UHGV virus genome: UHGV-1376342
Source: a virus
DNA: 37,941 nt
Reading direction: 5' to 3' (one strand)
The position numbers and the translations under genes are program-made. The notes under the pieces were generated by a model. That model searched no databases. It was not told where the DNA came from and saw only the letters and a list, made by a program, of their open reading frames with translations. Below are positions 8,134-37,941 of this stretch, piece by piece. Numbering within the stretch: position 1 is the first letter of the stretch; the number at the start of each line of letters is the position of its first letter.

Positions 8134-8189
8134 AGGCTAGTCTCTCTCACTCTATTTGCTGTATGATAGAGACAAACAGGAGACATAGC

Positions 8190-10319
8190 ATGCATGATCA
8201 AGACAAAGTATTTAAAGACCCTAGGGTAGACGACATAACAACAGGCACGGGCGTGATTGATGAGCGTGACGCTCTATCTATCGATGAAGTAGATGACGCC
8301 ACGCTTGTACGGCGTTTCAAGTATTGGGTAAACGACTCAGAAGCCTACTGGAATAGCAAGAGTGGCTTCAACCTACGCAATGTACGAGCACAGAACGAAC
8401 GGTACTACCTCGGCAAGCAGGACAGCGACAGGCTTTACTACCACCAGGCAGACTATCGTGACAACCAGCTATTCGTTGGTATTCAAGCCGTTATAGCCTA
8501 TGTCTCATCTCGTGACCCAGGGTGTGAGATTACTCCGGGTGACGACTCTCCAGCCAGTAAGACGCTCGCTACACGTCTAGAAAGCGCTGTAGACCTACAC
8601 AGCCAAAAGGTACGTCTCTCACGCAAGATCAAGGTAGCAGCCAAGAACCTCGCTCTGAAGCGTGTTGGCGTGATTAAGCTCATGTACAACCCATTCAGTA
8701 AAGAGATTGAAGCTAAGGCACTCAACCCAGAGAAGGTTATTCTCGACCGTAACGCAGAACTAGACGAGGAGCCACGCTTTATCTGTGAGGTATGTGAGGA
8801 CACTGTAGACATTCTCATGTCCAAGTTCCCAGAGAAAGAGAAGGAGATTATGAATGAGCTTGGCTTTGTGCGTAAGACTCAGAAGCTCCTTAGCACTGTT
8901 GTAGCCTACAACGAGATTTGGTTCACGGACACTACCACCGGTGAGCCTCGTGAATGTGTCGCCTGGTACTTCAATAACCTCATCCTCGACAAGAAGCTTA
9001 GCCCCATGTACGAGTACGACAATAAGGGTGTTGCTATCTGTAACTACACAGACAAGCCAACCAAGCCGTACGCCTTCTGTAACTACCTGAACGACGGTAG
9101 CCACATGATTGACCAAACATCGCCTATCGAGCAGGCTATTCCTCTCCAGAATATCCTCAACCGCCGTGGTCGCCAGATCATCGACAACGCAGACACAGCT
9201 AACAGCATTAAAGTGTTCCGTTCTGGTGCTATCTCAGAGGACGACGCCAAGAAGCTCACAGGCAAGCCTAACCAGTCTGTTGTGCTTGATATTCGTGAGG
9301 ATGAGCCTCTCAGCAACGCCTATGGTGAAATTCCAGCCCACTTGCTACCGAACTACGTCCTACAAGACAAAGAGGATATTAAGAACAGCATCCACAACAT
9401 CCTTGGCACGCCTTCTCAGTTCCGTGGTGACGACTCGAAGCGTGACGTTGGTACACTCGGTGAAGCTCAGATGATGCAGAGCCAAGCATCAGGTCGCCAG
9501 GATGAGATTGTGCGTGAGATTGACAACATGCTTGATCGCTACTTTAAGCTGCTTGTTCAGATGATGAAGGTGTACTACAGCAAGAACCACAAAATCTCTG
9601 GCCGTGACACTGATGGTAACTTTATCCACGTCGAGCTATCTCGTGAGACTATCCCAGACAACGCTGTGATCGCTGTGTCACCAGGCAGTACCGTAAGTAT
9701 GGACAAGAGCCGTCGTGAGAACATCGCAGTCAAGTTAGCAGAGCTTGGTGTTATTGATCCATACAACCTGTTCAAGGATCTTGGCCTTAAGGACTCTAGC
9801 GAGCGTTACGAGAGCCTGGTCAAGTTCAAGACAGACCCGAACATGCTCGTTGATGAGGTGCGCAGTGAGGTGCAGGACGAGGAAGCATATATTGACTTTG
9901 CAGTCATCATGAATGGCTTTGACGCCAAGCCACGTGATGACGTGACACCAGAGCACATCCTAGCCCACAATAAGCAGCTCCAGACTGATAAGTTCCTGAT
10001 GGCTAACCCGAAGTTGCAGCAGAAGCTCCTGGCTCACATCGATCAAGAGGTGCTCAGCCTCAGCCAGCGTGAGAAGCTCCAGGAAGCTAGCGACCAAGGG
10101 TTACTCGTAGACCCAAGCATGCCTACAAGCCCAGAAATTCCACAGCCTCAGCCAGAAATGCCCGCAGACCCATCTCAGATCCCGCCAGAGCTGTTGCAAG
10201 GCCAGCAGCCGCCAGTAGAGGGCCAACCTATTCCTGATCAGCCAGCACAGCCTGTAGGCGATCTAGGCGGTGTGCAGGATCAAGGCACAAGCGGTATCCT
10301 CTCAGGCCTCGGGCTATAG
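8190..10319 (+). CDS. portal protein with P/Q-rich C-terminal extension
   Basis: ~709 aa directly after TerL; ATG 8190 has SD caggagaca (track start 8163 lacks SD); size/position typical of portal. Confidence 0.7.
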   Translation: MHDQDKVFKDPRVDDITTGTGVIDERDALSIDEVDDATLVRRFKYWVNDSEAYWNSKSGFNLRNVRAQNERYYLGKQDSDRLYYHQADYRDNQLFVGIQAVIAYVSSRDPGCEITPGDDSPASKTLATRLESAVDLHSQKVRLSRKIKVAAKNLALKRVGVIKLMYNPFSKEIEAKALNPEKVILDRNAELDEEPRFICEVCEDTVDILMSKFPEKEKEIMNELGFVRKTQKLLSTVVAYNEIWFTDTTTGEPRECVAWYFNNLILDKKLSPMYEYDNKGVAICNYTDKPTKPYAFCNYLNDGSHMIDQTSPIEQAIPLQNILNRRGRQIIDNADTANSIKVFRSGAISEDDAKKLTGKPNQSVVLDIREDEPLSNAYGEIPAHLLPNYVLQDKEDIKNSIHNILGTPSQFRGDDSKRDVGTLGEAQMMQSQASGRQDEIVREIDNMLDRYFKLLVQMMKVYYSKNHKISGRDTDGNFIHVELSRETIPDNAVIAVSPGSTVSMDKSRRENIAVKLAELGVIDPYNLFKDLGLKDSSERYESLVKFKTDPNMLVDEVRSEVQDEEAYIDFAVIMNGFDAKPRDDVTPEHILAHNKQLQTDKFLMANPKLQQKLLAHIDQEVLSLSQREKLQEASDQGLLVDPSMPTSPEIPQPQPEMPADPSQIPPELLQGQQPPVEGQPIPDQPAQPVGDLGGVQDQGTSGILSGLGL

Positions 10320-10366: not shown

Positions 10367-11422
10367 ATGGAGGTGTTTACATTGGCATCATCTAACACAG
10401 ACCTATCAGAGATGGACTTTGACGCACTGGTTGAGAAGGCAGAAGCCCAAGACCAAGACGACAAGGAGACAACTGACGAGGTAAAGGAACAACAAGATAA
10501 CCCTACCACAGAGGATGAAAAGAACGGTGAGGATGAAGACACTACCGAAGCGCAAGACGACGAGTCGGAAGAGACTCCAGAGGATGAATCAGACAAAGAA
10601 GAATCTGGAGAATCAGAGGAAGAGCCGAAAGCACAAGGGCTCTCTGACGAGGAGTTTCTAAAGGAGCTTGAACGTCGTGGCCTTAAGGTGGCAGAAGACA
10701 AAAAGGAAGAGCCTAAGAAGGATGACAAGCCTCAGCCATGGGAGGAGCGCCCAGATGAGATTGACGAGAAGCTTTGGAACAAGTCATCACCAGAGGAGAA
10801 GTTTATCTACAACAGCCTCGACTACATCACTGTGAAGGGAAAGGACGGCGAGGAGCTGTCTATCAAGCTGCCTACACAGTTGCCAGACGACTTTGAGTTT
10901 GCCAACAAGAAGGCAGAAGCACAGTTCTACAGTGCTATGAGCGCCCAAAGCTCTAAGGCAGAGAAGCTCATGAATAAGATCACCTCTGATCGTGAGCAGA
11001 CAACCAAGGCAGAGAAGGAGAAGGCAGAGCTTGATGCTATTATTGCTGACGTGGATCGCCTCCAGGACGACGGTATCGTGCCAAGGATCAAGGCTAAGCC
11101 AGGCACAGAGGAATTTAACACTGATCCTAGTGTGCAGCTGGTGAACAAGATCCTCGACTTTCGTGATGAGTACAACCGCAAGCACAAGGGTGAGAACATT
11201 AGCTCGTACACAGCTGGCCTCATCTACAAAGCTAAGAACCCAAAAGAGTTTGAGACAGAGGACAACAAGCGACGCTCTAGCCAGGACAAGTCACGGGAGA
11301 AGACCGCTAGCCGTGTAGCAAATAAAACAACATCAGCCAATCGCCCAGAGTACAACCATAAGGTTTTTGGTAAAAACGTCAGTCTAACTGACATTGCAGA
11401 TTACTATGCAGATCAACTATAA
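10367..11422 (+). CDS. putative scaffolding protein (highly acidic N-terminus, coiled-coil C-terminus)
   Basis: 351 aa after portal; D/E-rich 60-aa N-terminal tract, K/E-rich helical remainder; alternative TTG start 10382 has SD GGAGGTG. Confidence 0.45.
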   Translation: MEVFTLASSNTDLSEMDFDALVEKAEAQDQDDKETTDEVKEQQDNPTTEDEKNGEDEDTTEAQDDESEETPEDESDKEESGESEEEPKAQGLSDEEFLKELERRGLKVAEDKKEEPKKDDKPQPWEERPDEIDEKLWNKSSPEEKFIYNSLDYITVKGKDGEELSIKLPTQLPDDFEFANKKAEAQFYSAMSAQSSKAEKLMNKITSDREQTTKAEKEKAELDAIIADVDRLQDDGIVPRIKAKPGTEEFNTDPSVQLVNKILDFRDEYNRKHKGENISSYTAGLIYKAKNPKEFETEDNKRRSSQDKSREKTASRVANKTTSANRPEYNHKVFGKNVSLTDIADYYADQL

Positions 11423-12064: not shown

Positions 12065-12346
12065 ATGGATGACAAACCGCTAAACAAATGGCAGGTCAAG
12101 GAAATTATAGATGACGCCATCACCAAGCATGAATTACGCAAAGAAAAGGACTTTGTGCCTATATACGCGTTAGAAATATACAAAAAAGACATAGAATCAC
12201 GGCTAAAAGACCTTGAAACTGACTCAGCAGAGGCTAAAGACCGTAATAAATGGCTGTTTCGCCTCGTTGTGGGCGCAGTTATCACCTCATTTGTGCCAAT
12301 TGTCATCGCATTGCTGTCCAATAGCAGGGGAGGGTTGCTACGATGA
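12065..12346 (+). CDS. tail-anchored membrane protein (C-terminal TM)
   Basis: 93 aa; charged helical N-region then LFRLVVGAVITSFVPIVIALL; stop overlaps next start (ATGA). Confidence 0.5.
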   Translation: MDDKPLNKWQVKEIIDDAITKHELRKEKDFVPIYALEIYKKDIESRLKDLETDSAEAKDRNKWLFRLVVGAVITSFVPIVIALLSNSRGGLLR

Positions 12347-13095
12347 GAAAGAATCGTGTCATTCGATGGTTTAAAAGAGAAACACTACTAAAAATTCTAT
12401 CAATCATGATGATTTTGAGCCTTATATTCAGTGGCTATACCATTTACAAGGTATTTACACTCAAACCAGGCCAAACTGTCACTATTGCAGGCGGTACGAA
12501 GGTAGAAAAGCCCGTTACGAACATTACAAACGCCCAGATAGACAAGGATGGCAACCTAGTGCTCACATATTCAGACGGAGAAGCCCGCAATGTGGGCTCT
12601 ATCGTAGGCTCGAATGGTAAAGATGGGGCGGATGGTAAGACACCAACCAACTCAGAGATAGCATTAGCCATCAAGACGTACTGTCTCACCAACAAATGCT
12701 CAGATAACCCCACAAGCGCCCAGGTAATGAGCGCTGTTGCTGCTTATTGCTCAAGTGGTATATGTAATGGTATGAACGGCAAAAACGCCTCAGACGAGCA
12801 GATAGCGACCGCTGTGGCTAAATACTGTGCGGCAGGGTTGTGCAGGGGTGACAAAGGCGCTACGGGTGCCACAGGGGCTACAGGAGCGGCAGGAGCGAAT
12901 GGCATCAATGGTGTTGACGGCAAAGACGGGAAGGATGGTAAAGACGGCGCGTCTCCACAGCTATCATGCGTCAACATCAAGGACAACACAGGTAACCAAA
13001 CATCATGGGTAGCATGGAAGTACGAGAGTGAAGCTAACGCTGCGTACCGTAGGCTATACAAGATCGCTGGTGACAGTAACTGTATTAATATTTAA
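12343..13095 (+). CDS. N-anchored membrane protein with collagen-like G-X-Y tracts and three Cys-containing repeats
   Basis: 250 aa; TM ILSIMMILSLIFSGYTIY; GDKGATGATGATGAAGANGINGVDGKDGKDGKDGA; repeats A.A.K(T/Y)YC...G.C x3. Confidence 0.6.
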   Translation: MRKNRVIRWFKRETLLKILSIMMILSLIFSGYTIYKVFTLKPGQTVTIAGGTKVEKPVTNITNAQIDKDGNLVLTYSDGEARNVGSIVGSNGKDGADGKTPTNSEIALAIKTYCLTNKCSDNPTSAQVMSAVAAYCSSGICNGMNGKNASDEQIATAVAKYCAAGLCRGDKGATGATGATGAAGANGINGVDGKDGKDGKDGASPQLSCVNIKDNTGNQTSWVAWKYESEANAAYRRLYKIAGDSNCINI

Positions 13096-13105
13096 GGAGG
13101 TATAA

Positions 13106-14143
13106 ATGGCGTACAACTACATTACGCAGTATGACTCGCCAAACTATACTGCTGGCCGGCAAGGCAATAACATCAGCAGTATCACAATCCACTGGTGGGG
13201 TGATCCTAACCAGAACCCTACATTTGAGGGTGTCACAGCATGGCTGTGCAACCCAGCAGCGCAGGTAAGCGCTCACTATGTTGTTACGGGCACAGACCGG
13301 CGCGTAGCCTGCATTGTAGACCCCGCCAACATCGCTTGGCACGCAGGTAACTGGGTAGGTAACCAGACAAGCATTGGTATTGAGTGTGATCCACGGTGCC
13401 GTGATGAGGACTATGACGTTATTGCTGAACTGGTATCAGAGCTGCGCAAGACTTATGGTGACCTACCACTCCGGCCACATAACTCGTGGACGAGCACCAG
13501 CTGCCCTGGCAACTATGACCTAGGCCGTATCGACCGCATGGCTCGTGAGAAGGCTGGCCAGGTTGTGCAGCGTGATCGGACTGATGAGATTAACTATTTG
13601 AATGGCTTGTATCAGCAGATTCTTGACCGCAACGTAGACGAAAACGCTATTGGCCACTACCTGTCTCAGATCGACAAGGGTTGGAACTGGGATCAGATCC
13701 GTGAGGACTTGGCTAACAGCGCAGAAGGTAAGGCTGTGGCAGAACGACGTAACACACGCAATAATGAGCTACGAGCAGCCTACGACAGTGAAACTAATGA
13801 GATTCAGCGCCTCTACAAGGATATTCTCGAGCGTGATGCAGATGAAGGCGGCATTGAGCACTACCGCAATCAGATCCGCAATGGCTGGAACTGGGGCATG
13901 GTAGAGGATGACCTACGTCGTAGTGATGAGTACAAGGAGTTGCAGCGCATCAAGAACGCACCAACACCCGAAATTCATCATGTAGACCCAGAGCCACCGA
14001 CAGAGCCAGAGAAACCACAGGAGAGGGCCGCAGAGACACCTCAGGAAGCGCCAAAGGCAGAGGACACCACAACTATCCTTGGAGATATTCGACGCATCTT
14101 GCAGGCGATCCTAGACGCTATCACAGGTTTGTTTAAAAAATAA
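13106..14143 (+). CDS. endolysin: N-acetylmuramoyl-L-alanine amidase (Amidase_2/PGRP) with duplicated C-terminal repeat
   Basis: Blocks IHWWG, SAHYVV, AWHAGN..NQTSIGIEC, PHNSWTSTSCPG align with T7-lysozyme/PGRP zinc amidases; two ~35-aa repeats (GHYLSQIDKGWNWDQIREDL / EHYRNQIRNGWNWGMVEDDL); P/E-rich tail. Confidence 0.8.
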   Translation: MAYNYITQYDSPNYTAGRQGNNISSITIHWWGDPNQNPTFEGVTAWLCNPAAQVSAHYVVTGTDRRVACIVDPANIAWHAGNWVGNQTSIGIECDPRCRDEDYDVIAELVSELRKTYGDLPLRPHNSWTSTSCPGNYDLGRIDRMAREKAGQVVQRDRTDEINYLNGLYQQILDRNVDENAIGHYLSQIDKGWNWDQIREDLANSAEGKAVAERRNTRNNELRAAYDSETNEIQRLYKDILERDADEGGIEHYRNQIRNGWNWGMVEDDLRRSDEYKELQRIKNAPTPEIHHVDPEPPTEPEKPQERAAETPQEAPKAEDTTTILGDIRRILQAILDAITGLFKK

Positions 14144-16722: not shown

Positions 16723-18084
16723 ATGCTCGTATCGATAAATCAAGTAGACTTGCCTACAGTATTTAAAAAAGAGGGTTGGCCCGACAACGACTATCTGTTA
16801 CCAGGCAGGGACGGGCTAGAAGCATATTCGTCTAAATTCTCAACACACTATGCATCTCTTGAGGAGATAAGAGGGCAGAGCGACGTAGAGCTGCTTGTAA
16901 AGGCTAAAATAGATACTCTTATAGGAAAGCAGGGGCTACTTATTATACGGGGCAATAAAGCCGGAGGAGAGGACTGTGGATACGTACTAGCTCTATGGAA
17001 GGCTCAAGCTGGCGGTATGTATATGAAGGTCGACGACTCTAAAAATGATTTTAACCAAGCTGTTCATGTCCCGTATCCAACAGAGTGGAATTGGTACAGG
17101 TTTAGCGTAAAAGGGTCAACTATCCGAGCTAAGTTTTGGCGTGATGGGTATGTAGAGCCGGCATGGCAGATAGTTATAAACGACACTAAATGGCCAACTG
17201 ATAGTAATGGTATATCTGGTATCGCCCACTTTAGCGGCGGTACTGTTACATATAATTATGTAGCAGCCTCGACAGACGAGAGGCCAGCGCCAAAACCCGG
17301 TGAATACGTTGATACATATGTAAACCCAAAGCCGGAGCCGGAGCTTGGCTATTGGGGTGCGCTTGGTTTACGACCGATTGGCCTCATCCAAATGCCAAAA
17401 AAGAAAAACACTAACTACGATATTGTAGGCGAAACAACAACAGTTAGAATAACATCTAGCTCACCGAGATTGTCTCACGAGTATTTTATTAGAGGGAATA
17501 AAGGGTTCCCGTGGGTCGCAATAGATATTGAAAAGGTTATATACAAAGAGCCGGGTAAACTTTATATTTTGCCCTCAACAGAGGTAGCGAGAGTTAAAAT
17601 AAGCCAGCCGACGCTGAATTATAAGTCACCGCCCAATACGAGAGTTGTTGGATCTACAACAACAGCTAGAATTACTACTAATCTTCCATCTATTACTTTC
17701 AGCTCAAAGCATGCCATCATAGGCGATCAGTCTATAGTTCGCGTAGAAGTGCCGCAACCTACTATCGTGTTTAAGGACGTTGAGCGGTACACCTTCTATG
17801 TAGACCCTGTTACGGCTCGCATACACTCTACGATGCCATCTGTCCGCTTTAAACGCGTGCAGATCAACCCTGACGTGTGGTCAACACCACAACAGCGTAT
17901 AGAGCAGGAGTGGCGCAAGTTACCCGTCTCCAGCGAGGCTACAGGCGCTTGGAGACAATACGAGTATGTTCGTAGCAATGACCAGGTTTGGCGCGACAGA
18001 CGGCGCGAGGACGCCTCACAATGGCGAAAACCGGTATCTACTACTAGAGATGAGCAAGAGTGGCGGCGTGTAGTGTATGATTAG
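16723..18084 (+). CDS. tail/receptor-binding-like protein with five degenerate ~28-aa tandem repeats and W/R-rich C-terminus
   Basis: 453 aa; repeats TTTVRITSSSPRLS / VARVKISQPTLNYKS / TTTARITTNLPSITF / SIVRVEVPQPTIVFK / VTARIHSTMPSVRFK; C-terminal EWR/QWR/VWR periodicity. Confidence 0.5.
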   Translation: MLVSINQVDLPTVFKKEGWPDNDYLLPGRDGLEAYSSKFSTHYASLEEIRGQSDVELLVKAKIDTLIGKQGLLIIRGNKAGGEDCGYVLALWKAQAGGMYMKVDDSKNDFNQAVHVPYPTEWNWYRFSVKGSTIRAKFWRDGYVEPAWQIVINDTKWPTDSNGISGIAHFSGGTVTYNYVAASTDERPAPKPGEYVDTYVNPKPEPELGYWGALGLRPIGLIQMPKKKNTNYDIVGETTTVRITSSSPRLSHEYFIRGNKGFPWVAIDIEKVIYKEPGKLYILPSTEVARVKISQPTLNYKSPPNTRVVGSTTTARITTNLPSITFSSKHAIIGDQSIVRVEVPQPTIVFKDVERYTFYVDPVTARIHSTMPSVRFKRVQINPDVWSTPQQRIEQEWRKLPVSSEATGAWRQYEYVRSNDQVWRDRRREDASQWRKPVSTTRDEQEWRRVVYD

Positions 18085-18102: not shown

Positions 18103-18993
18103 ATGCTGACATTTTCGCAACTAAAACAGGACGTAATTAGCCTCATTAACGTCGATGAGGACAATATACAAGAGGTACGCAAGGCTGTCTCGGATATTAA
18201 CACCGGGATCAAGCTATTTCAAAACGCTGTGAGACGGTACTGGGTGCGCCAGGAGCGTGAGACTAACCTTATCCAGGGTAAATCACTGTATCGCTTCCCA
18301 AGGGATATGGTACGTGTTGTAGACGTACGTATTAAGGATGGTGACAGCTACTATCCTATTAGTCTCGTGCACAATATTGAGGATTGGCATAAACTCACGG
18401 GCGGACAATCTACCGGCAAACCTGAATGTTACATTATCAAGAACGGTACAGAGATGGAATTGTACCCAACGCCATCAGATGACGTGCCAAATGGCATGAT
18501 TGTGACGTTTGAACCTCGTATGCAGGACCTAGGGCTGGCAGATAGGGAGGCTAACGTGTCTCTGACAGAGAATAGCCCACGAGTTACGGCAGCACAGGAC
18601 AGTTTTGTGCGCAGTATGGAGAATAACGGGTGGCTACAGGTCACAGACGGCAGTGATGGCAACTGGTACAAGGTAGCTAAGGTTGTAAACGCCCGCGAGA
18701 TACGCCTTGAGACGCCATATCAGGGCCTCACAGCGACGACACGCGTCAAAATAGGTCAATGCCCACAATTCCCCGAAGAATACCACCAAGCGCCCGTATA
18801 TTATGCCGCGCAGCAATACTTTTTGATGCGTAAAGACCTAGACAGCGCCAATATGTACAAGCAACTGTTCGATAATATGGTGCAAGAGTACAAGACAGTC
18901 TACGGAATGACAACAACCTCTGGCTTTATCCAGGGGGGTAGTAGCATGATGGGGCGAGAACGGATCACTGATCCAGTAAGGAGTATTTGGTAA
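18103..18993 (+). CDS. virion structural protein (hypothetical)
   Basis: 296 aa, SD taaaggagaa; in tail/virion module. Confidence 0.5.
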   Translation: MLTFSQLKQDVISLINVDEDNIQEVRKAVSDINTGIKLFQNAVRRYWVRQERETNLIQGKSLYRFPRDMVRVVDVRIKDGDSYYPISLVHNIEDWHKLTGGQSTGKPECYIIKNGTEMELYPTPSDDVPNGMIVTFEPRMQDLGLADREANVSLTENSPRVTAAQDSFVRSMENNGWLQVTDGSDGNWYKVAKVVNAREIRLETPYQGLTATTRVKIGQCPQFPEEYHQAPVYYAAQQYFLMRKDLDSANMYKQLFDNMVQEYKTVYGMTTTSGFIQGGSSMMGRERITDPVRSIW

Positions 18994-27831: not shown

Positions 27832-27898
27832 TGGCCACGGTTATAGCCAAATAGTGTCGTAAAATCAGATTAGTAACAACTATAAGGAGATGGAAGCA

Positions 27899-28978
27899 AT
27901 GAAGTTTTCAGAAACAGTGCAAAACATCACAAAGGACGAGTTTCTACCTCGCGTTGTTGACTTTGTTAACAACTCGAACGTTTTGACCGCTCGCGTGATG
28001 AGCAACACCAAGAAGTGGGCTGGCCCCAAGGTGCAAAGCCCTACACAAACTAAAAACAGCACGACTGGTAAGTCGATTACCGACATGGAGCAATTCAGTG
28101 TCGCTGCTACCGACAACGTTAAAAACCTGAAGTGGGAACCTGCTACAGTCGTTCAGAGCGTTGTTGTTAGCCAAATCGAGAAGGCTGTCAACCAAGCATC
28201 GAGCGACAACCAGGTTGTTCGTTTGGTTGCTCAGAAGCTCGAGGAAGCTCAGAACAGCCTCGCAAACCTCATCGGTACCCAGCTTTATGGTACTGGTGCT
28301 GGTAACGACCTTGATGGTCTTGGCTTGATCGTTGACAACGGTACGGCATCTACCACTTACGCTGGTATCACTCGTGCTACCCTGCCTTCGGTCAACGCTG
28401 ACGTTACGGCTGCTGCTAATGGTCTCTTAACTCTTGGCCTCATGGCTAAGGAGTTTGACGCTGTCTCGGCTGCTGGTAGCGCAAAGCACAGCCCAACGAT
28501 GATCCTCAGCGACAAGGCAACTTGGAGCCTCTACGAGGAGCTGATGGGCGACAAGCTCAGCGTCCAGTACAACGCTATGACTGCTCGTGGCTACAACCGT
28601 GTTAGCGGCGGTACTCCAATGGGTACGTCTGTGCCTGCTAGCGAGTTGCACGGCTCGGCTGGGTTCGTATCGCTCGACTTTCGTGGCAAGCCATGTGTGG
28701 CTGACGACAAAGCTCCTGTTGGTAAAATGTTCTTCCTCAACGAGAACTACCTGGAGTTTCGTGATCTGTCCATTCCTGGCCTTGAGCGCGTGAAGCAGAA
28801 GCAGGAGGCTATCGATAGCGCTATTAGTGAAGACCAGCCTACCTGGATGCAGTTCCGCGGCTTTAAGGAGCCAACAAACCAGCTCGCAGAGATTGGTGCA
28901 ATGGTTGTATCGGGTAACTTTATCTGTACTCAACCTCGCCGCCAGGGTGTTATCACAGGTATCACCAAGATCCGATAG
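27899..28978 (+). CDS. putative major capsid protein
   Basis: 359 aa; ATG 27899 9 nt after AAGGAG (track ATG 27890 abuts SD); pronounced T-ending codon bias (ggt gct cgt ctt gtt act) unlike neighbours; followed by strong terminator. Confidence 0.5.
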   Translation: MKFSETVQNITKDEFLPRVVDFVNNSNVLTARVMSNTKKWAGPKVQSPTQTKNSTTGKSITDMEQFSVAATDNVKNLKWEPATVVQSVVVSQIEKAVNQASSDNQVVRLVAQKLEEAQNSLANLIGTQLYGTGAGNDLDGLGLIVDNGTASTTYAGITRATLPSVNADVTAAANGLLTLGLMAKEFDAVSAAGSAKHSPTMILSDKATWSLYEELMGDKLSVQYNAMTARGYNRVSGGTPMGTSVPASELHGSAGFVSLDFRGKPCVADDKAPVGKMFFLNENYLEFRDLSIPGLERVKQKQEAIDSAISEDQPTWMQFRGFKEPTNQLAEIGAMVVSGNFICTQPRRQGVITGITKIR

Positions 28979-29001
28979 TCTAACCTCTAGATTATCCAAG
29001 A

Positions 29002-29024
29002 GCCCCACTCCGGTGGGGTTTTCT
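29002..29024 (+). terminator. rho-independent terminator GCCCCAC-tccg-GTGGGG-TTTT
   Basis: Stem 29003-29008/29013-29018, U-tract, then TCTTGTTGTAAAT 29022-29034. Confidence 0.6.
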
Positions 29025-29051
29025 TGTTGTAAATAAAACTCAAAAAAAGTG

Positions 29052-29080
29052 TTGACGCTATTCTTTGGATGGTGTACTAT
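29052..29080 (+). promoter_or_regulatory. promoter TTGACG-17-TACTAT with conserved leader
   Basis: TTGACG 29052-29057, 17-nt spacer, TACTAT 29075-29080; leader contains CATAAGCAAGAGAGGAG 29094-29110. Confidence 0.55.
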
Positions 29081-29122
29081 AGAGACATAGCAAACATAAG
29101 CAAGAGAGGAGATAATACTTGC

Positions 29123-29386
29123 ATGGCTAAAGAAAGTAAAACCAATAAGAAAAGCCAAGACGTAATCTTTGGGGCAAACGAAGAGATTCGCCGCGCTGTA
29201 GACAAGCTCTACGTAAAGAAGACGAGCGCTATCATGACGGCAGCAATCTTTGCAGTAATGCTCTCACTGATCGCAGCAGGGTTTGCCTTCGCAGCTGGCC
29301 TCAACACGGGCCGCACACAGGTTGAGAAGTACAACACTATCAAGGTTGTGACGAGCGAAACCGCGGGAAAAGAAAAAGCCCAGTAG
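29123..29386 (+). CDS. signal-anchor (type II) membrane protein; possible upstream half of a frameshift fusion
   Basis: ATG 29123 with SD agagaggag; TM AIMTAAIFAVMLSLIAAGFAFAAGL; slippery G_GGA_AAA at 29365-29371 near 3' end. Confidence 0.5.
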   Translation: MAKESKTNKKSQDVIFGANEEIRRAVDKLYVKKTSAIMTAAIFAVMLSLIAAGFAFAAGLNTGRTQVEKYNTIKVVTSETAGKEKAQ

Positions 29387-29427
29387 CGAAACCAGTTGTT
29401 AAAGTAGAGCAACCTCCAGTAGCTATA

Positions 29428-29760
29428 GTGGCGCAACCGGCTAAGACAGGATGCGACGCTGTACGTGAGGAGGCCTCGAAATACAGCGGGTGGGACGTAA
29501 ACACCATGGTTGCCATCGCTACCGCCGAGAGCCATTGTAGGACAGGCGCAAAAGGTGACCAAACACTAACATTTACACAAAATAATAGGGTATACGGGTA
29601 CAGTCTTGGAGCTTTCCAGGTAAGGATACTTCCAGGACGAGAGCATTGCGACACGTTCGATGTAGGGACTAACGTGAAATGTGCGTACGATGTGTGGAGG
29701 TCACAGGGGTACAAAGCATGGTCAGTCTACTTGAGCGGTAAATATAAAGAGCACCTATAG
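29428..29760 (+). CDS. transglycosylase-like (Rpf/SLT-like) domain protein, GTG start or -1 frameshift product
   Basis: VAIATAESHCRTGA...GYSLGAFQV...CAYDVWRSQGYKAWSVY resembles transglycosylase-like domain pattern (A.CESgG...GgLQf...W..c); no ATG, weak SD before GTG 29428; frame open from 29326. Confidence 0.45.
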   Translation: MAQPAKTGCDAVREEASKYSGWDVNTMVAIATAESHCRTGAKGDQTLTFTQNNRVYGYSLGAFQVRILPGREHCDTFDVGTNVKCAYDVWRSQGYKAWSVYLSGKYKEHL

Positions 29761-29784
29761 TGGGTGCTCTTATCTTTTGGGTTT
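29748..29784. terminator. bidirectional terminator AGAGCACC-7nt-GGTGCTCT between convergent blocks
   Basis: 8-bp perfect stem 29748-29755/29763-29770 flanked by T-tract on + side and A-tract (U on minus) upstream. Confidence 0.5.
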
Positions 29785-29794
29785 GTCTTTATGT

Positions 29795-30016
29795 TTATAT
29801 TAGGCCGCGCTTCTTAGCTTCCTCTGGGTAGTACTCGATAAAGTCCTCGTTTACTGTCCCGTCTGGATTGTGCGATTGAATTAGGTCAACCGCATAGTCC
29901 TCGCGCTGTCTGTCTTTGTTGTTTGTGTCTGCTATACCCGTGACAGTGCTTGAGACGCGCTGTGATGCGTCTTTTGGTGTTTCACGGTAATATATACCAT
30001 CTATGATCACGCCCAT
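29795..30016 (-). CDS. hypothetical protein (73 aa), last gene of leftward operon
   Basis: Minus ORF, start adjacent to upstream stop (TAGATG). Confidence 0.45.
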   Translation of the reverse strand: MGVIIDGIYYRETPKDASQRVSSTVTGIADTNNKDRQREDYAVDLIQSHNPDGTVNEDFIEYYPEEAKKRGLI

Positions 30017-30298
30017 CTATTTCACGTCCTTCATAAAGTCTAACGGGTCTTTTTCTGTTTGTCCTGTCTCATCACGCCATTGAGCGTTGATCGTCACAGG
30101 GTCGGCGGCTTCAATGATGCCACTCCTTTTGTTTGTGTCTTTGTTTTTATTTATGTATTGCTCCTCCGCGCCTGCGTATTTCTCCAGCCAGGAGAGGCCC
30201 GCCCGGCGTGCTGTAGTAGGTACAACCGGGTCACGGCGGTTATTTAGCAAAGCAACTAAGAGGGCACAAATTGAGATAACAAGGGCTACAATTTCCAT
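30017..30298 (-). CDS. small N-anchored membrane protein (93 aa)
   Basis: MEIVALVISICALLVALL TM; TAATG overlap with groEL-like stop. Confidence 0.5.
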   Translation of the reverse strand: MEIVALVISICALLVALLNNRRDPVVPTTARRAGLSWLEKYAGAEEQYINKNKDTNKRSGIIEAADPVTINAQWRDETGQTEKDPLDFMKDVK

Positions 30299-31776
30299 TA
30301 TTCTTGATCCTTCTCGAATGGTAACGCCACATTAATCGATAGGAGCTGTGCAGCGACGCTGTGGCTGTTTACAATGGCTTCCTCGATAGATTTAGCACTG
30401 TCTACAATACCAGCCTTCAGAACGTCTGTATGATAGGTTTCAGAGTAAATATCGTAGCCAGCCTTCGGTGTATATGGCTTATCCTCAGTCGTTTCCTTGG
30501 CCATACTGTTTACGAGCATCGTATAGGGCTGCGTGAGGTAGCTCGGCATATTGGTGGTATCAGCCTCGTACACGTCGCGCAGGAACGTACCGCCACCAGG
30601 GAGTACTCCATAGTCCTTTGCTATCTGTGTAGCTGCTACAGCGTCCTCAATACGGAGTTTTAGCTCTTGCCGTTCAACCTGTGTAGCCGCACCAACACTA
30701 ATCTCTACAGTCTTGCCGTTCAGCGCATCGCGTCGGTAATCATCCTTGATACCTTCGATGTACTGATCTAGCTTCTCGCGGTTACCTGGGCCAGATAGGA
30801 TAGTCTTTGTAGTGGTAATGTGGGCGCGCTCAACTTTACCGATATTGGCATCTGTAAAGTCTGATATACGAGGCGACACAAATACTTCAGCGCCGGCGTA
30901 GGCTGCTACGTCACGAAGGAATAGCTCGCGGGCTTGGCTTGATGGTTCTACCACGACAATGTTCAGCTTCCCGTTCATCTTATTAGTGGCAAGGGTCTCA
31001 AGGGCTTGCCCTGATACGTCTGCTACGAGCACAATACTCTCTGCACCAGCCTTGAGGACGGCGTCGATGATAGGTACAATGTCGTCATTCTTGCTAATAA
31101 GTCGAGACATAACAATAACAGTTGGGTTATCGTATTTCGTCTGGATAGACTGCATATCGTCTGCAAATGCAATAGATGACATACCTTTTTTGAAGGTGAA
31201 ACCTTGGACGATCTTGCTCTCAATCTTATTCTCAGGTGTTTCTACCACTGTTACTGCGCCATTAGCGCCGGCATCTTTGATCGCGTCGAACACTAAATGA
31301 CCGATAGCCTCGTCGCCAGATGATGTATGCGCAACATGATAGAGTAACTCATCTGTAGCCTCAATCTTATTCTCTTTGATAGCCTTCAGGATAGCTTGTT
31401 TGTTTCGCTCAATTTGTTTCTGTACGGCGCGTGGCTTGTCCTTCGCCATCTCCTTGAAATAGTTGTAGACAAGGTAAGTCATAACGATAGTGAGAGTAGT
31501 AGAATCACCAGCTGACCGGTTAGTTTTCTCACTAGCTTGGCGTACGAGAGAGATAGCCATGTTCTCTACTGGGTCTGATACGACGAGACGCCCAATATTA
31601 GTGATACCGTCGTGAGATACGAGAGGTTCACCATAGCGGTGCTCAATCATGATATTGCCAGAGTTAGCCCCATATGAGGAGTAAGCTACATCAAAGGCCT
31701 TCTCGACGCCCGCACTGATCTTTTCTCTCAGCTCATCACCACGAATTACGTTACGTACTGATGTTTGTTTAGGCAT
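30298..31776 (-). CDS. groEL: GroEL-like chaperonin (Cpn60 family), lacks GGM tail
   Basis: ~492 aa; blocks DGITNIGRLVVSDPVENMAISLVRQASEKTNRSAGDSTTL and VERQELKLRIEDAVAATQIAKDYGVLPGGGTFL align to GroEL equatorial-domain motifs ([73 protein letters not shown]); start chosen at MPKQ (31776) with SD. Confidence 0.8.
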   Translation of the reverse strand: MPKQTSVRNVIRGDELREKISAGVEKAFDVAYSSYGANSGNIMIEHRYGEPLVSHDGITNIGRLVVSDPVENMAISLVRQASEKTNRSAGDSTTLTIVMTYLVYNYFKEMAKDKPRAVQKQIERNKQAILKAIKENKIEATDELLYHVAHTSSGDEAIGHLVFDAIKDAGANGAVTVVETPENKIESKIVQGFTFKKGMSSIAFADDMQSIQTKYDNPTVIVMSRLISKNDDIVPIIDAVLKAGAESIVLVADVSGQALETLATNKMNGKLNIVVVEPSSQARELFLRDVAAYAGAEVFVSPRISDFTDANIGKVERAHITTTKTILSGPGNREKLDQYIEGIKDDYRRDALNGKTVEISVGAATQVERQELKLRIEDAVAATQIAKDYGVLPGGGTFLRDVYEADTTNMPSYLTQPYTMLVNSMAKETTEDKPYTPKAGYDIYSETYHTDVLKAGIVDSAKSIEEAIVNSHSVAAQLLSINVALPFEKDQE

Positions 31777-32065
31777 CCAATGAACCCCCATTTACAGCAT
31801 CTACGGGGACAAAGATAAACATTTTACCATCTACCTCAATCTCTTCGCTGTCGTTATACTTCGTAAAATAAATCTTGTTACCAAGAAATTTTGAGAGAGT
31901 GTCCTCTTTCTCTGTGGCCACACCACTCTCGTTGATATAGACAGATTTTAGTATACCGCTCGTATGGCTGCCATGTTCTCCTTGTGAGATAGACAAACTC
32001 GAGCCGTATTTATTAGTTACCTCTACCAGGCAAAACCCTGGCATGGCGTGTAACTCTGTGCTCAT
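31769..32065 (-). CDS. groES: GroES-like co-chaperonin (Cpn10)
   Basis: 98 aa directly upstream of and overlapping groEL-like; GNKIYFTKYNDSEEIEVDGKMFIFVPVDAV parallels GroES [31 protein letters not shown]; SD taggagcac. Confidence 0.6.
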   Translation of the reverse strand: MSTELHAMPGFCLVEVTNKYGSSLSISQGEHGSHTSGILKSVYINESGVATEKEDTLSKFLGNKIYFTKYNDSEEIEVDGKMFIFVPVDAVNGGSLDA

Positions 32066-34523: not shown

Positions 34524-34796
34524 CTACCATTTCTTTGTGTTGTTTTGGTGTCTGGATTTTGATTTGGTATGACCTCCCTTCCTTTTACCAGCTTTGCTAT
34601 ATGTATAGTCAACAAATACAGACGCGGCAATAATAATAACCAGAAACACAGTGCATGCTTCAGCCATCTTTGTCGCCTCCGGTACGTTCAGTATATCAAG
34701 CGCCCATTTGTAAAAAGCATAAGCCATTCGTATAAGACACAATGTGACCACTGGTGATAATACTGTCAATAGATAACGCAACACTAGTTTACTCAT
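34524..34796 (-). CDS. membrane protein (2-3 TM) with basic C-tail
   Basis: Start at MSKLVL (SD aaaggtgg) rather than track start 34850; hydrophobic helices; overlaps whiB-like stop by 8 nt. Confidence 0.45.
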   Translation of the reverse strand: MSKLVLRYLLTVLSPVVTLCLIRMAYAFYKWALDILNVPEATKMAEACTVFLVIIIAASVFVDYTYSKAGKRKGGHTKSKSRHQNNTKKW

Positions 34797-35052
34797 ACAT
34801 CGCCACCTTTGTTGCCAAAATACCCATACGCTCACGCGGTGTAAGCCCACCTCGCATGCCGTACTCTACGTCGCCCGTCATCAGCGCATCTGCTAGACAC
34901 TCACCCCTTACTGGACACTCTGCACAAATCTTGCGTGCCGCGTTGTAGTTATCGTATCCGTTGTAGTCATCCACGTATGCTTTGTTCTGTGGGAAGAAAG
35001 CTTCCGGGTCTGTTTGTGCACATAGTGCGCTACCTCGCCATTTATCGTGCAT
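34789..35052 (-). CDS. whiB: WhiB-like (Wbl) Fe-S transcription factor
   Basis: Four Cys in Wbl spacing (C..29..C..C.....C) and downstream turn motif YGMRGGLTPRER (Wbl G[V/I]WGG-like turn plus basic tail); start at MHDKW with SD aggggaa (track start 35073 lacks SD). Confidence 0.7.
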   Translation of the reverse strand: MHDKWRGSALCAQTDPEAFFPQNKAYVDDYNGYDNYNAARKICAECPVRGECLADALMTGDVEYGMRGGLTPRERMGILATKVAMYE

Positions 35053-35151
35053 CTGGAAAATTCCCCTCATCATCGTTAATGTTCGTCATATTCATGCCGG
35101 TACAAAATGCTTTTATATCGTCCATACTAATATCATCGTGTGTATCATCTA

Positions 35152-35346
35152 TCATCGCAATCTACCAACCATATATATTTTTATGTCATCAACAAAGGCT
35201 GGCGCATTAATATCACCGTCTTTGCCGTCGTAAAGAACGTCGTTTAAATTCTCTACGAGCCACTTTCTGGTAATCTCCATAATCTCGTCTGCCTTCATGC
35301 CATTATTGGTTGATTTATCTAGAATTTCTAGGATTTTCTGTTTCAT
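35152..35346 (-). CDS. hypothetical protein (64 aa)
   Basis: ATG 35346 with SD aaggatga; track start is TTG. Confidence 0.45.
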   Translation of the reverse strand: MKQKILEILDKSTNNGMKADEIMEITRKWLVENLNDVLYDGKDGDINAPAFVDDIKIYMVGRLR

Positions 35347-35349
35347 CAA

Positions 35350-35583
35350 TTAATCATCCTTGCATGTTACCGCTATTGTGATAAATGAGATTGTCTCAAT
35401 TGCCTTAGAAACTGTCCAAAGTATCATTACTACAGACAGTAGCCCCCACCAAAAACCGTTATCAAAGCCTTTCGCGGTTAATAGCCACGCTGTGAGCGTA
35501 CCCAACACTACCGTGTACATGATACGCGCAAAAGCAACTACAACCATCGCTTTATGATAATCGTTATTATTTTGTTGTTCCAT
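35350..35583 (-). CDS. small membrane protein (two TM)
   Basis: SD gagaggag; hydrophobic helices. Confidence 0.5.
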   Translation of the reverse strand: MEQQNNNDYHKAMVVVAFARIMYTVVLGTLTAWLLTAKGFDNGFWWGLLSVVMILWTVSKAIETISFITIAVTCKDD

Positions 35584-35658
35584 GAGCCTTCTCCTCTCTT
35601 TTGTTTATGTTTTTATTCTAACGCAAGCATTAGCTAAAGTCAACATTTTTACTCAACT

Positions 35659-35928
35659 TTATTTATCTCGTAGTTCCCACCGCCTAATATACCGGCCATT
35701 CATCTCTAACCGTGTACTTCGGCCCCATCCAACACACTCAAAGTCTAACGTGCGGAACACCCCGCCGATAGTGTTGTGGTGTAGGAACTTCGGTAGTGGC
35801 TTTTTCTTGAGCACGTCCTCGATTGTCACATATTGCTGTGTCTTGAGGAGGTGGCGAGCCGTAGCCCGCGCTTCCTCTAGCCATTTGATCTTTTCAACCT
35901 TGAACATATCATTTACTGTGTGTGCCAT
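35659..35928 (-). CDS. hypothetical protein (89 aa)
   Basis: SD aaaggagaa. Confidence 0.5.
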   Translation of the reverse strand: MAHTVNDMFKVEKIKWLEEARATARHLLKTQQYVTIEDVLKKKPLPKFLHHNTIGGVFRTLDFECVGWGRSTRLEMNGRYIRRWELRDK

Positions 35929-35942
35929 GTTTATTCTCCTTT

Positions 35943-37904
35943 CTAGATATATAAGCCTTGTAGGCGCTGTAATGATTTTGCTGCTGGGTCACTGTAGAGC
36001 AGGTCGCCCTTACCCGTAAGGGATTCAGCTCCTACGTCATCCAAGATAATCTTGCTGTTGATAGAGTTTGTGACACTAAAAGCGATCTTGGTTGGTATAT
36101 TTGCCTTGATGAGGCCTGTCACAACGTCTGCTGATGGGCGCTGTGTTGCTAGTATGAGATGTATACCAACCGACCGTGCTTTCTGTGCTAGCCTGATTAT
36201 AGACTCCTCAGCAGAAGGCGGTGTGTTATCGTTGACGCGTTTCACGGCGGCTTTGAGTGCGGCCTTTGTGAGCTTACCACCTGTGAGCGTCACCTCGTCC
36301 AAGATTGCGTCCTTGAGCCCTTCGTAGTCAACATTAGAGAGTGGGTTTTTCTTGCTCGTCATCATAAGATCAGCAAACTCATCCACTACAACTACGATAC
36401 GCGGCATCTCTCCTGGGTAGTCTGCAATGTCTCGGACGCGCTTCTCGCGTAGCTCCTTGTACCGTCGCCCCATCTCCTCTACGAGCCAGTGAAATGTCTC
36501 CGCCGCCTCATTGGGTGAGGTGATAATATCGTTTGCAAGATGATCATCACCCTCGTACATAGCAAGCTCAACCTCTTTAGGATCGATGAGCACGAGCTTC
36601 ATTTTCTCCGGTGTGAGCTGCTTCGTGAGACAGTCCAGGATTACGTTTATCATAACAGACTTACCTGCGCCGGTCTGACCAGCGATCAAGAGGTGAGGTG
36701 TCTTTACAACGTCACAGTAGTGCACCTTGCCGAAGGCGTCCATACCGATAGGAAACTCGAATGTACCAGGCTTGAGGTGTTCATCCGTGAGAGGAACTAC
36801 CTTGCGCTCTTTGTTAGGAATCTCGATACCTACGAGGTTCGTACCAGCGATAGGCGCTTCGATGCGCACAGACTCGCTCTCAAGGGCGATAGCAAGGTCG
36901 CTAGCCTTATCTGCGATACGCTTCATACTCACGCCACGGTTAGGCTGCATCGTGTATTTGACTACCTGTGGCCCTACATATGTCTCGCCCATTTTACCGC
37001 CGATACCAAACTCGATGAGCTTGCGGAGGATCTTCTCCTCGTCTGTGCCTGTACCATCATCGATGACAACGTTCTGTTGCTCAAAGGTATCAGCCACTCG
37101 TACTTGTCGTTTGATCTTGGCGGCGTCAAAGCCTTCTTGCTGGTTGGCGATAATATCCATACTGTTCGCGCCGTTCATCCGATCGTTCATGTTAGGGAAG
37201 AACTTCGACCGGTCATCGTTCACGTACTCAAATACGTTTGTGATGATTTTCTTTGCGATAGGTGCGAAAGCAAGGACGGACTGGCGATCAAAAGCAACAT
37301 CCCGACATTGCGGCGAACCATCTCGGTTGATCGTTTTCTTTATTTCTTTAAATACTACCTCTGTTACTTCCTGATTATATTCCGCTTCTGCTAATACGAG
37401 GTAGATATATGCCTGCATAAGATACTTGTAGCTCTCCTCGTCATCTGGGCTGTAAGCCGTAACTGTCTTGTAATCGATGAGCCGCAGGCCGTTGTCGCGT
37501 ACCACCATGTCAATTACACCTACCATAGGCACATTAGCGATGCTAGCCTCGAGTCGCTTCTCAACGTCTACTACTTCATTGTAATGAGGCGCTTCCTCAA
37601 AGTATTTGTTCACGAGGCGCGTGTAGTCTTGCATCATCTTTTCACGGCTGCCTGTCTTGCCAAAGTCAATCTCGGAGTCGCTTACGTAGCTCATCTCCTC
37701 TAGGCCGGCCTCAATAGCAGCCTGCACATCACCACCATCCTTGTCGTAGTAAGTCTCCATAGCCTTGTGAAAGCTTGTACCTACTACGAGTGATGGTGTT
37801 TTAGGGTTGTCGTAGATCTTTGCTATGTAGCGCTTCTGAAATTCAACCTGGTTATTCAAGAACGTTACAATTGCTGAGTATGACAGGTGATTAACTCTAC
37901 TCAT
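35943..37904 (-). CDS. FtsK/SpoIIIE-family DNA-translocase-like ATPase with ~380-aa N-terminal domain of unknown function
   Basis: 653 aa; Walker A LLIAGQTGAGKS, Walker B IVVVVDEFADLM, GIHLILATQRPS block typical of FtsK/SpoIIIE/TraB ATPases; SD ggagaggag. Confidence 0.8.
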   Translation of the reverse strand: MSRVNHLSYSAIVTFLNNQVEFQKRYIAKIYDNPKTPSLVVGTSFHKAMETYYDKDGGDVQAAIEAGLEEMSYVSDSEIDFGKTGSREKMMQDYTRLVNKYFEEAPHYNEVVDVEKRLEASIANVPMVGVIDMVVRDNGLRLIDYKTVTAYSPDDEESYKYLMQAYIYLVLAEAEYNQEVTEVVFKEIKKTINRDGSPQCRDVAFDRQSVLAFAPIAKKIITNVFEYVNDDRSKFFPNMNDRMNGANSMDIIANQQEGFDAAKIKRQVRVADTFEQQNVVIDDGTGTDEEKILRKLIEFGIGGKMGETYVGPQVVKYTMQPNRGVSMKRIADKASDLAIALESESVRIEAPIAGTNLVGIEIPNKERKVVPLTDEHLKPGTFEFPIGMDAFGKVHYCDVVKTPHLLIAGQTGAGKSVMINVILDCLTKQLTPEKMKLVLIDPKEVELAMYEGDDHLANDIITSPNEAAETFHWLVEEMGRRYKELREKRVRDIADYPGEMPRIVVVVDEFADLMMTSKKNPLSNVDYEGLKDAILDEVTLTGGKLTKAALKAAVKRVNDNTPPSAEESIIRLAQKARSVGIHLILATQRPSADVVTGLIKANIPTKIAFSVTNSINSKIILDDVGAESLTGKGDLLYSDPAAKSLQRLQGLYI

Positions 37905-37941
37905 CGTCGTTCTCCTCTCCGTTGTTAGCGTTAGCGGTTAA
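37897..37941 (-). CDS. 3' end of an upstream leftward gene (partial, 14 codons + stop)
   Basis: Frame open from window edge to TAG at 37897-37899 overlapping FtsK-like start; acidic C-terminus ...NNGEENDDE. Confidence 0.25.
   Translation of the reverse strand, partial: LTANANNGEENDDE

Follow-up and report, generated by a model that had tools for sequence, protein, structure and literature searches.

The closest described systems to the locus considered here are of two kinds, one related by the mode of expression and the other by the architecture of the product. Of the former kind, the tail-assembly chaperone G/GT of phage lambda is produced by a -1 frameshift on G_GGA_AAG, an arrangement conserved across the tailed phages, and OrfA/OrfAB of the IS3 family and the tau/gamma forms of dnaX rely on A_AAA_AAG together with a downstream stem-loop or pseudoknot. 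Of the latter kind, the signal-anchored or signal-arrest-release (SAR) endolysins, such as Lyz of P1 and R of phage 21, are single open reading frames (ORFs) located in lysis cassettes, whose products are Sec-exported and, in the SAR type, activated when the transmembrane segment leaves the membrane. The subject of this work is a two-frame locus at 29123-29760 of the virus genome UHGV-1376342, the whole 37,941-nucleotide (nt) stretch of which is referred to below as the window. At this locus, a -1 programmed ribosomal frameshift very probably joins a membrane anchor, encoded by ORF1, to an SLT_3 lysozyme-like domain encoded in the -1 frame by ORF2, such that one gene would give rise to two products. 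A preliminary description of the window had proposed a programmed -1 fusion of this kind, and the proposal is supported by the conservation of the frames, a switch in the frame under selection and the missing start codons of the domain. No description of this recoding event was found in the searchable literature; the gene family is new and the mechanism, i.e., -1 programmed frameshifting, is known. The elements of the locus are the following:

29107-29111, plus strand: Shine-Dalgarno sequence AGGAG of ORF1, 11 nt before its ATG
29123-29386, plus strand: ORF1, the zero-frame product of 87 amino acids, running from ATG 29123 to TAG 29384-29386, with a tail ending in ...TSETAGKEKAQ
29228-29302, plus strand: transmembrane helix of ORF1, residues 36-60, AIMTAAIFAVMLSLIAAGFAFAAGL, with a Kyte-Doolittle 17-residue maximum of 2.48
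29365-29371, plus strand: slippery heptamer G_GGA_AAA, at which the -1 shift most likely takes place, within the zero-frame codons GCG GGA AAA GAA AAA GCC CAG TAG
29374-29378, plus strand: second possible shift site A_AAA_G, in the context GA[A AAA G]CC, three codons past the heptamer by our account
29371-29448, plus strand: linker read in the -1 frame, residues 84-109 of the fusion, RKSPVAKPVVKVEQPPVAIVAQPAKT, spanning the apparent intergenic gap 29387-29427
29428-29430, plus strand: GTG that gene callers would choose as the start of ORF2, probably only Val103 of the fusion, with no Shine-Dalgarno sequence
29449-29760, plus strand: SLT_3 lysozyme-like domain (Pfam PF18896), residues 110-212 of the fusion and the stop codon

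The heptamer is correctly phased as X_XXY_YYZ in the zero frame of ORF1, the stop codon of which lies four codons after it and is invariant in all relatives. From 29326 to the stop at 29758-29760, the -1 frame is uninterrupted and reads ...GKRKSPVAKPVVKVEQPPVAIVAQPAKTGCDAV... into the domain; hence, the position of the heptamer, its phasing and the extent of the open frame are all as initially described. With the point of the shift marked by a slash, slippage at the heptamer predicts the junction ...AGK/RKSPVAK, as opposed to ...AGKEK/SPVAK for slippage at A_AAA_G, and the junction peptide originally put forward, ...TSETAGK/RKSPVAKPVV..., is correct. As a background, phased canonical heptamers number 17 among the 10,658 codons of the window's genes (a rate of 0.16% per codon), and of these, that at 29365-29371 alone is located within 60 codons of the end of a gene; the occurrence of a heptamer at the end of ORF1 is more than expected by chance. 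As a separate observation, other phased and highly shift-prone heptamers, namely A_AAA_AAG at 17397, 21783 and 26940 and G_GGA_AAG at 10837 and 21975, are found inside long ORFs of the structural region, far from their stops. No tRNA genes, which might have included a tRNA-Lys capable of modulating slippage, were found in the window.

Comparison with close relatives indicates that the break between the two frames is genuine. A 28-nt segment, GCGGGAAAAGAAAAAGCCCAGTAGCGAA, is unchanged in four contigs of metagenome-assembled genomes (MAGs) and in 20 IMG/VR genomes, the latter drawn from nine or more metagenomes; all of these sequences differ elsewhere. The heptamer is invariant in the window and all 24 relatives, as is the continuous -1 frame across the close relatives, which is the outcome favorable to the frameshift in the comparison with related phages suggested by the preliminary description. 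Further, the distribution of variable columns over codon positions, counted among the window and 20 relatives (21 sequences), allows the frame under selection to be followed along the locus. In the body of ORF1, the 63 variable columns are distributed 7/5/51 over the frame-0 codon positions, and the six variable columns in 29326-29362 all fall at frame-0 third positions, which implies that the open -1 frame is non-coding there. The adjoining segment 29363-29386 is invariant, with no variable columns. Beyond it, the nominally intergenic segment 29387-29427 shows 14 variable columns, which split 2/3/9 over the -1-frame codon positions (binomial p=0.017), and is free of both indels and -1-frame stops, and the 68 variable columns of ORF2 are distributed 3/6/59 in that same frame. 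Judged by these patterns, the 41 nt between the stop of ORF1 and GTG 29428 appear to evolve as -1-frame coding sequence, and ORF2 appears to be under strong purifying selection. On account of the switch in the codon-position pattern, ribosomes must pass into the -1 frame somewhere between 29362 and 29391, an interval that contains no start codon in that frame.

One relative, L001 (NCBI contig BNJV01001548, protein P0006), reads CGGGGAAAAG at the site, with one extra G that places ORF1 and the linker in one frame. Whether this version exposes a sequencing error in the window was considered, and the idea was rejected: L001 is a nanopore assembly, all eight indels that distinguish it from the window in an 830-bp region are +1 homopolymer insertions in L001, and its genes are fragmented throughout. 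The accession belongs to a PromethION saliva study, the authors of which warn of frameshift errors (PMC7782811). As a nanopore assembly full of +1 homopolymer errors, L001 is uninformative for or against a frameshift.

The same organization is observed throughout the family. In each of the 76 viral loci for which upstream context is available, the anchor ORF precedes an SLT_3 domain that lies at -1; neither a +1 nor an in-frame position occurs among them. The domain is likewise at -1 in the TM7 phage MG269973 and in 14 MAG loci that are split. Together, these loci represent about 14 lineages, with domains 39-68% identical to that of the window, divergent ORF1 sequences and stop-to-domain distances of 32-119 nt. 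If the permitted interval for a shift is defined as the stretch with an open -1 frame that lies before the stop of ORF1, an in-frame A_AAR is present within it in 16 of 16 representative loci, including L002, L006 and L030, in which this interval is only 13 nt long. Canonical heptamers are found in nine of the representatives: G_GGA_AAA in four, A_AAA_AAA in two, and T_TTA_AAA, C_CCA_AAA and A_AAA_AAC in one each. Outside the window's clade, the lineages with G_GGA_AAA ahead of the stop of ORF1 are L036/L094, L057 and L103, three unrelated ones. With regard to one of these, two identical copies of the locus (L103 and L104) are situated 40 kb apart on a 71-kb contig of a 'Prevotella sp.' MAG (JAFTFC010000001.1), as would be seen if a ~40-kb phage genome had been assembled as a concatemer and placed in a bacterial MAG during binning.

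Among deposited phages, a DNA-level search with 27890-30300 returned no match, and a protein-level search returned a single one, TM7 phage DolZOral124_53_65 (MG269973). At 2271-2914 of this genome (MG269973.1, L130), only the 87-amino-acid anchor ORF is annotated (CQ476_31), under the label 'lysozyme-like domain protein'; the real SLT_3 domain in the -1 frame carries no annotation because it has no start codon. Candidate shift sites in this phage are CCG TTA AAA AAC and GAC AAA AAA TAG. Its gene order is similar to that of the window and includes an annotated Cpn60/TCP-1 chaperonin.

Versions that have no need of a frameshift also exist. A set of 23 fused homologues (L105-L127), 22 of them on Saccharibacteria MAG contigs of up to 153 kb and one binned as Marinilabiliaceae, are single ORFs in which an N-terminal transmembrane segment is joined directly to SLT_3. 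Further, in the phage-like contig L128 (protein P0016), the N-terminus, transmembrane segment, tail, linker and domain are all in one frame. These natural fusions indicate that the functional architecture is the anchored one.

Inspection of ORF1 agrees with the membrane anchor initially ascribed to it: a basic N-terminus precedes a single hydrophobic helix (residues 36-60), which is rich in Ala and Gly and is followed by a short tail, and the AlphaFold2 model built on alignment A1 shows residues 10-59 as a helix. The product is thus predicted to be a bitopic membrane protein of N-in/C-out topology. The database homologues of ORF1 are all 86-87 amino acids long, in clusters totaling more than 200 sequences, one with 198 members; a search of these homologues for a role of the short product returned only near-identical 86-87-amino-acid proteins and none outside the clade. 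Two alternative readings of ORF1 were considered and rejected. ATG 29069, which would give a 105-amino-acid ORF, lies inside the -10 region of the promoter candidate described below, and AGGAG precedes ATG 29123 instead; read-through or recoding of the TAG would meet further frame-0 stops six codons later, and the domain is in frame -1.

The Pfam SLT_3 model (PF18896) scores the product of ORF2 at 41.3 bits, above its gathering cut-off of 27 (E=2.2e-10), and homologues of the domain carry a precomputed PF18896 assignment. Four cysteines and Glu136, the latter in an AES motif, are invariant in alignment A1 (23 sequences). AlphaFold2, run on the same alignment, models residues 110-212 very confidently, with a predicted local distance difference test score (pLDDT) of 94-98, and residues 62-108, which include most of the 26-residue Pro/Val/Lys linker, as disordered. 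The nearest solved structures in a Foldseek search are C-type lysozymes (Musca and hen egg-white; probability 1.0, target-normalised TM-score ~0.55), to which the domain also shows weak sequence similarity. Of the original 'Rpf/SLT-like' designation, accordingly, the SLT part stands, as an SLT_3 domain resembling C-type lysozymes, and the Rpf part does not: the search against the Transglycosylas and SLT families that had been suggested found SLT_3, while a Pfam scan of ORF2 gave no match to PF06737 (Transglycosylas, Rpf) at E<=1, and no Rpf is present among the top 50 structural matches. No PHROGs family was found for ORF1, ORF2 or the fusion. The domain has no signal peptide of its own, as had been noted from the start, and this, together with the four invariant cysteines and the C-type-lysozyme fold, makes it look extracytoplasmic. 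The modeled fold fits a disulfide-bonded muramidase or lytic transglycosylase acting outside the cytoplasm, with either chemistry being possible.

These observations can be assembled into a putative sequence of events. Ribosomes would initiate at ATG 29123, and most would stop at TAG 29384-29386 to yield, as the major product, the 87-residue N-in/C-out membrane protein. A fraction would slip by -1 on G_GGA_AAA, or possibly on the downstream A_AAA_G, and read through the linker into the 103-residue SLT_3 domain to yield a minor product of 212 amino acids. In the latter, the helix of ORF1 would act as a type-II signal anchor and place the lysozyme-like domain outside the membrane, tethered beside the peptidoglycan. 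The role of such a protein is probably local wall remodelling or auxiliary lysis, apart from the amidase lysis cassette, or else one specific to the association with the host. The gene is located after the capsid gene in the window and in the TM7 phage, and beside RecT and replication genes in the L002 clade; this difference in position among lineages argues against a structural role in the virion. A more elaborate scenario, which we regard as speculative and rather unlikely, is that the frameshift sets a fixed ratio between an abundant 87-residue holin- or pinholin-like oligomer and a rare 212-residue lysozyme carrier, which assemble via their shared helix. If true, the locus would be a one-gene module for breaching both membrane and wall, tunable by the translational state of the host, in phages associated with the ultra-small Saccharibacteria (TM7) or with the actinobacterial partners of these.

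RNA structure downstream of the shift site, which the preliminary description proposed to look for, gives an answer that differs between clades: convincing elements with covariation are found in sister clades and none in the window itself. The L002-like clade (23 distinct sequences) has a 7-10-bp stem starting 5 nt after TCA AAA C, the loop of which pairs with a downstream pentamer (GCGGC-GCCGC or GCAGC-GCTGC) to form an H-type pseudoknot. Pairing extends to 93% of the cells of the alignment, and compensatory changes occur at five pairs, one of them in the pseudoknot stem; none of 500 shuffles attains the covariation score or the fraction of paired cells seen in the real alignment, and the signal collapses in slid controls. 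Additionally, GC-rich stems 3-9 nt after the site are present in L036, L103, L057, L044 and L032 (z -2 to -4.3), with a compensatory swap from G-C to C-G between L036 and L103. In L031 and L033, a very stable hairpin of 11-12 bp (z -4.2 to -4.8) is located ~32 nt after T_TTA_AAA, too far for a classical spacer.

Several points weigh against a programmed frameshift. The main gap in the case is the missing structure in the window's own clade: RNAfold found no convincing hairpin or pseudoknot in 29363-29470 of the window (z=-0.09; z=-0.6 for a 60-nt fold), and RNAalifold found no covariation among the 21 sequences of the window clade (covariation term -0.46). A local GGG/CCC hairpin encloses the slip site in this clade; it is invariant and so carries no information. 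An Rfam scan of 29000-29900 returned terminator-like noise only, and no upstream Shine-Dalgarno-like stimulator was detected in the window clade. Second, several sister lineages have only the tetranucleotide A_AAA, which is the sole motif in L002, L006 and L044. Third, in E. coli, X_XXA_AAG promotes shifting more readily than X_XXA_AAA. Finally, a GTG or ATG is found about eight codons before the first cysteine in most members of the window clade and in some other lineages, and an additional, internally initiated soluble form of the domain may be made alongside the fusion.

Of the alternatives to the ribosomal frameshift, one would place the slippage in transcription: the RNA polymerase would add one A in the A4 or A5 runs (29368-29371 or 29373-29377), and the fusion would be in frame on some of the mRNAs. 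A one-base insertion does yield the exact -1 frame, as the extra G of L001 illustrates, and A runs are present at the site in all lineages, reaching A7 in L030 and L034. However, for transcriptional slippage to be efficient, a run of about eight or more identical bases is generally required, and the window has A4 and A5, most lineages have A4, and only the two named lineages have A7. Further, G_GGA_AAA is phased in four lineages, and T_TTA_AAA or C_CCA_AAA in others, a phasing that matters to the ribosome and not to the RNA polymerase, and the covarying pseudoknot or stems 3-9 nt downstream in the sister clades are a hallmark of ribosomal -1 frameshifting. Hence, we infer that the slippage is ribosomal and consider its transcriptional counterpart quite improbable.

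A second alternative invokes two independent genes, i.e., a small membrane protein, perhaps holin-like, and a soluble lysozyme-like protein translated from GTG 29428 or by re-initiation after the TAG, which would reach the wall by another route. In its favor, the domain is predicted by gene callers, and entered in databases, as a protein of 110-135 amino acids in its own right. The GTG at the position of 29428, which is the sole start codon in the -1 frame before the domain in the window, is kept in 20 of the 21 window-clade sequences, and some members of the L002 clade have a GTG or ATG overlapping or just past the stop. Against it stand the nature and the distribution of these starts. The preliminary description had correctly noted the lack of an ATG and the presence of only this GTG, to which it ascribed a weak Shine-Dalgarno sequence; a scan upstream of GTG 29428 found no core, while 24 of the 41 genes of the window have one, and strong AGGAG sequences are used elsewhere in the phage. 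Across the family, the only Shine-Dalgarno sequence before a candidate ORF2 start is a marginal 4-nt GGAG in L006, which at a spacing of only 3 nt is too close to a GTG. In the relative L028, the GTG is replaced by GTA, leaving no ATG, GTG or TTG anywhere before the domain, and six lineages beyond the window clade (L030, L036/37, L038, L057, L060 and L085) likewise have none of the three. The finding that had been named as decisive against a frameshift, namely a clean Shine-Dalgarno-led start together with the loss of the heptamer, is thus the reverse of what is seen, with seven relatives being startless and a slippery motif being present in every lineage. The candidate starts of the L002 clade vary (ATG, GTG, ACG) and fall inside the covarying RNA stem. 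Moreover, the coding signature and lack of indels in the 41 nt before the GTG, and the universality of the -1 relation despite the variable length of the linker, are at odds with independent initiation, and a four-cysteine domain without an export signal would stay in the cytoplasm. Taken together, these considerations make two separate genes very unlikely.

The third alternative, an artefact or decay, in which a one-base deletion in GGGG/AAAA arose by sequencing or assembly, or a recent inactivating mutation left ORF2 a pseudogene, is effectively refuted, since the single-frame ORF1 and linker of L001 that would favor it come with indels that are all +1 homopolymer insertions, 24 other assemblies from many samples keep the break, ORF2 shows the 3/6/59 pattern of purifying selection, and the same split recurs in ~14 divergent lineages.

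The immediate surroundings of the locus and the likely lysis cassette of the window are delineated by the following elements:

28999-29022, plus strand: terminator-like hairpin closing the upstream capsid gene, with a 10-bp stem followed by a T tract
29052-29080, plus strand: sigma-70-like promoter candidate TTGACG-17-TACTAT, matching 9/12 consensus positions
29747-29771, no single strand: bidirectional terminator-like hairpin overlapping the ORF2 stop, with an 11-bp stem and T tracts on both strands
12065-14143: likely lysis cassette, consisting of an XhlA-like small protein (weak, E=1e-4), an Amidase_2 + DUF4214 endolysin and, between them, a 250-amino-acid protein with collagen-like repeats

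With terminator-like hairpins on both sides and a promoter-like site of its own, the ORF1/ORF2 pair is a small unit of its own. The promoter candidate is nearly identical in L001, an 88.7%-identical relative; calling it strong, as was done at first, is an overstatement for a 9/12 match, from which strength is not demonstrable. The placement of the locus after the capsid gene and away from the lysis cassette was correctly recognized, the Amidase_2 endolysin (13106-14143) being 15 kb off.

Other features of the genome may be noted in their own right. Downstream of the locus, two small minus-strand ORFs (29795-30298) separate it from a group I/II chaperonin gene (Pfam Cpn60_TCP1, E=8e-35) at 30298-31791 on the minus strand. 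The portal and adaptor (8163-10319 and 18103-18993) match SU10_portal and SU10_adaptor, which suggests a podovirus-like virion. A single 653-amino-acid protein at 35943-37904 on the minus strand combines a PD-(D/E)XK nuclease with FtsK alpha and FtsK/SpoIIIE ATPase domains, an unusual combination; the same fusion is found in the phage-like loci L002-L004, upstream of RecT and three genes before the anchor/SLT_3 pair. The end of the window (35282-37940) and its start (1-711) are contiguous in L001, by which the window looks like a nearly complete, circularly permuted genome of ~38-39 kb; its relatives are 37.9-40.0 kb long.

As to the host, the great majority of the family falls into bins of Candidatus Saccharibacteria, and the label of the deposited relative is that of a TM7 phage; Atopobiaceae is the bin of some close relatives. 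At 34789-35073 on the minus strand, the window carries a gene for a WhiB-family transcription factor (E=1e-19), a family typical of Actinobacteria and their phages, which fits awkwardly with the Saccharibacteria binning of most relatives. The host is either a TM7 bacterium or an oral actinobacterium such as a member of the Atopobiaceae.

If the proposed frameshift is correct, it extends the short list of programmed frameshifts in phages, which comprises tail-chaperone, capsid and dnaX-like cases, by a conserved family that had not been annotated before. Metagenomic catalogues call the domain as a truncated, anchorless 'lysozyme', and the predictions of localisation and function for hundreds of entries would therefore be wrong. 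The fused versions, those with a heptamer and those with a tetranucleotide plus pseudoknot offer a natural comparison set for the evolution of -1 signals. Additionally, the product is a candidate for a compact, disulfide-bonded, membrane-tethered muramidase in phages linked to Saccharibacteria and oral Actinobacteria, the lysis biology of which is almost unstudied territory.

When set against the known systems, the locus most resembles lambda G/GT in the logic of its expression. In both (by prediction, in the present case), the N-terminus of a short product of the zero frame is also that of a -1 product with a C-terminal extension, the heptamers are near-identical, the zero-frame stop follows a few codons past the site, and the frame relation is kept across very divergent sequences. 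However, the proteins are unrelated, the present locus is not in a tail module, and here the extension is an enzyme domain and the shared part a membrane anchor. With the IS3-family elements and dnaX, it shares a slippery motif based on Lys codons and, in the sister clades, a covarying H-type pseudoknot or stem 5 nt downstream; further, as proposed here, the catalytic domain would be made only by the shifted ribosomes, as in OrfAB. Unlike these, the window clade has no detectable 3' structure or upstream stimulator, and several lineages have A_AAA only.

In terms of protein architecture, the predicted fusion resembles the SAR endolysins in having an N-terminal, Ala/Gly-rich transmembrane helix followed by a muralytic domain with conserved cysteines, which would likewise be exported by the Sec system of the host. 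It departs from the arrangement that defines them, namely anchor and muralytic domain in one ORF within a lysis cassette beside a holin, in that anchor and enzyme are in different frames, the amidase endolysin is encoded 15 kb away, and the anchor is predicted to be made alone as well, probably in excess. As in the Rpf proteins, a small lysozyme-like fold would act on peptidoglycan outside the cytoplasm; in contrast to them, the domain has no match to PF06737 and its nearest structures are animal C-type lysozymes. Further counterparts are the fused anchor-SLT_3 ORFs (L105-L127 and L128), the domains of which are 46-56% identical to that of the window, with the same four cysteines and Glu and the same order of transmembrane segment, spacer and domain. 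All of them differ from the phage locus in being continuous, with no frameshift, and those from the MAGs also in having a very short N-terminus without the ~35-residue cytoplasmic segment of the phage ORF1.

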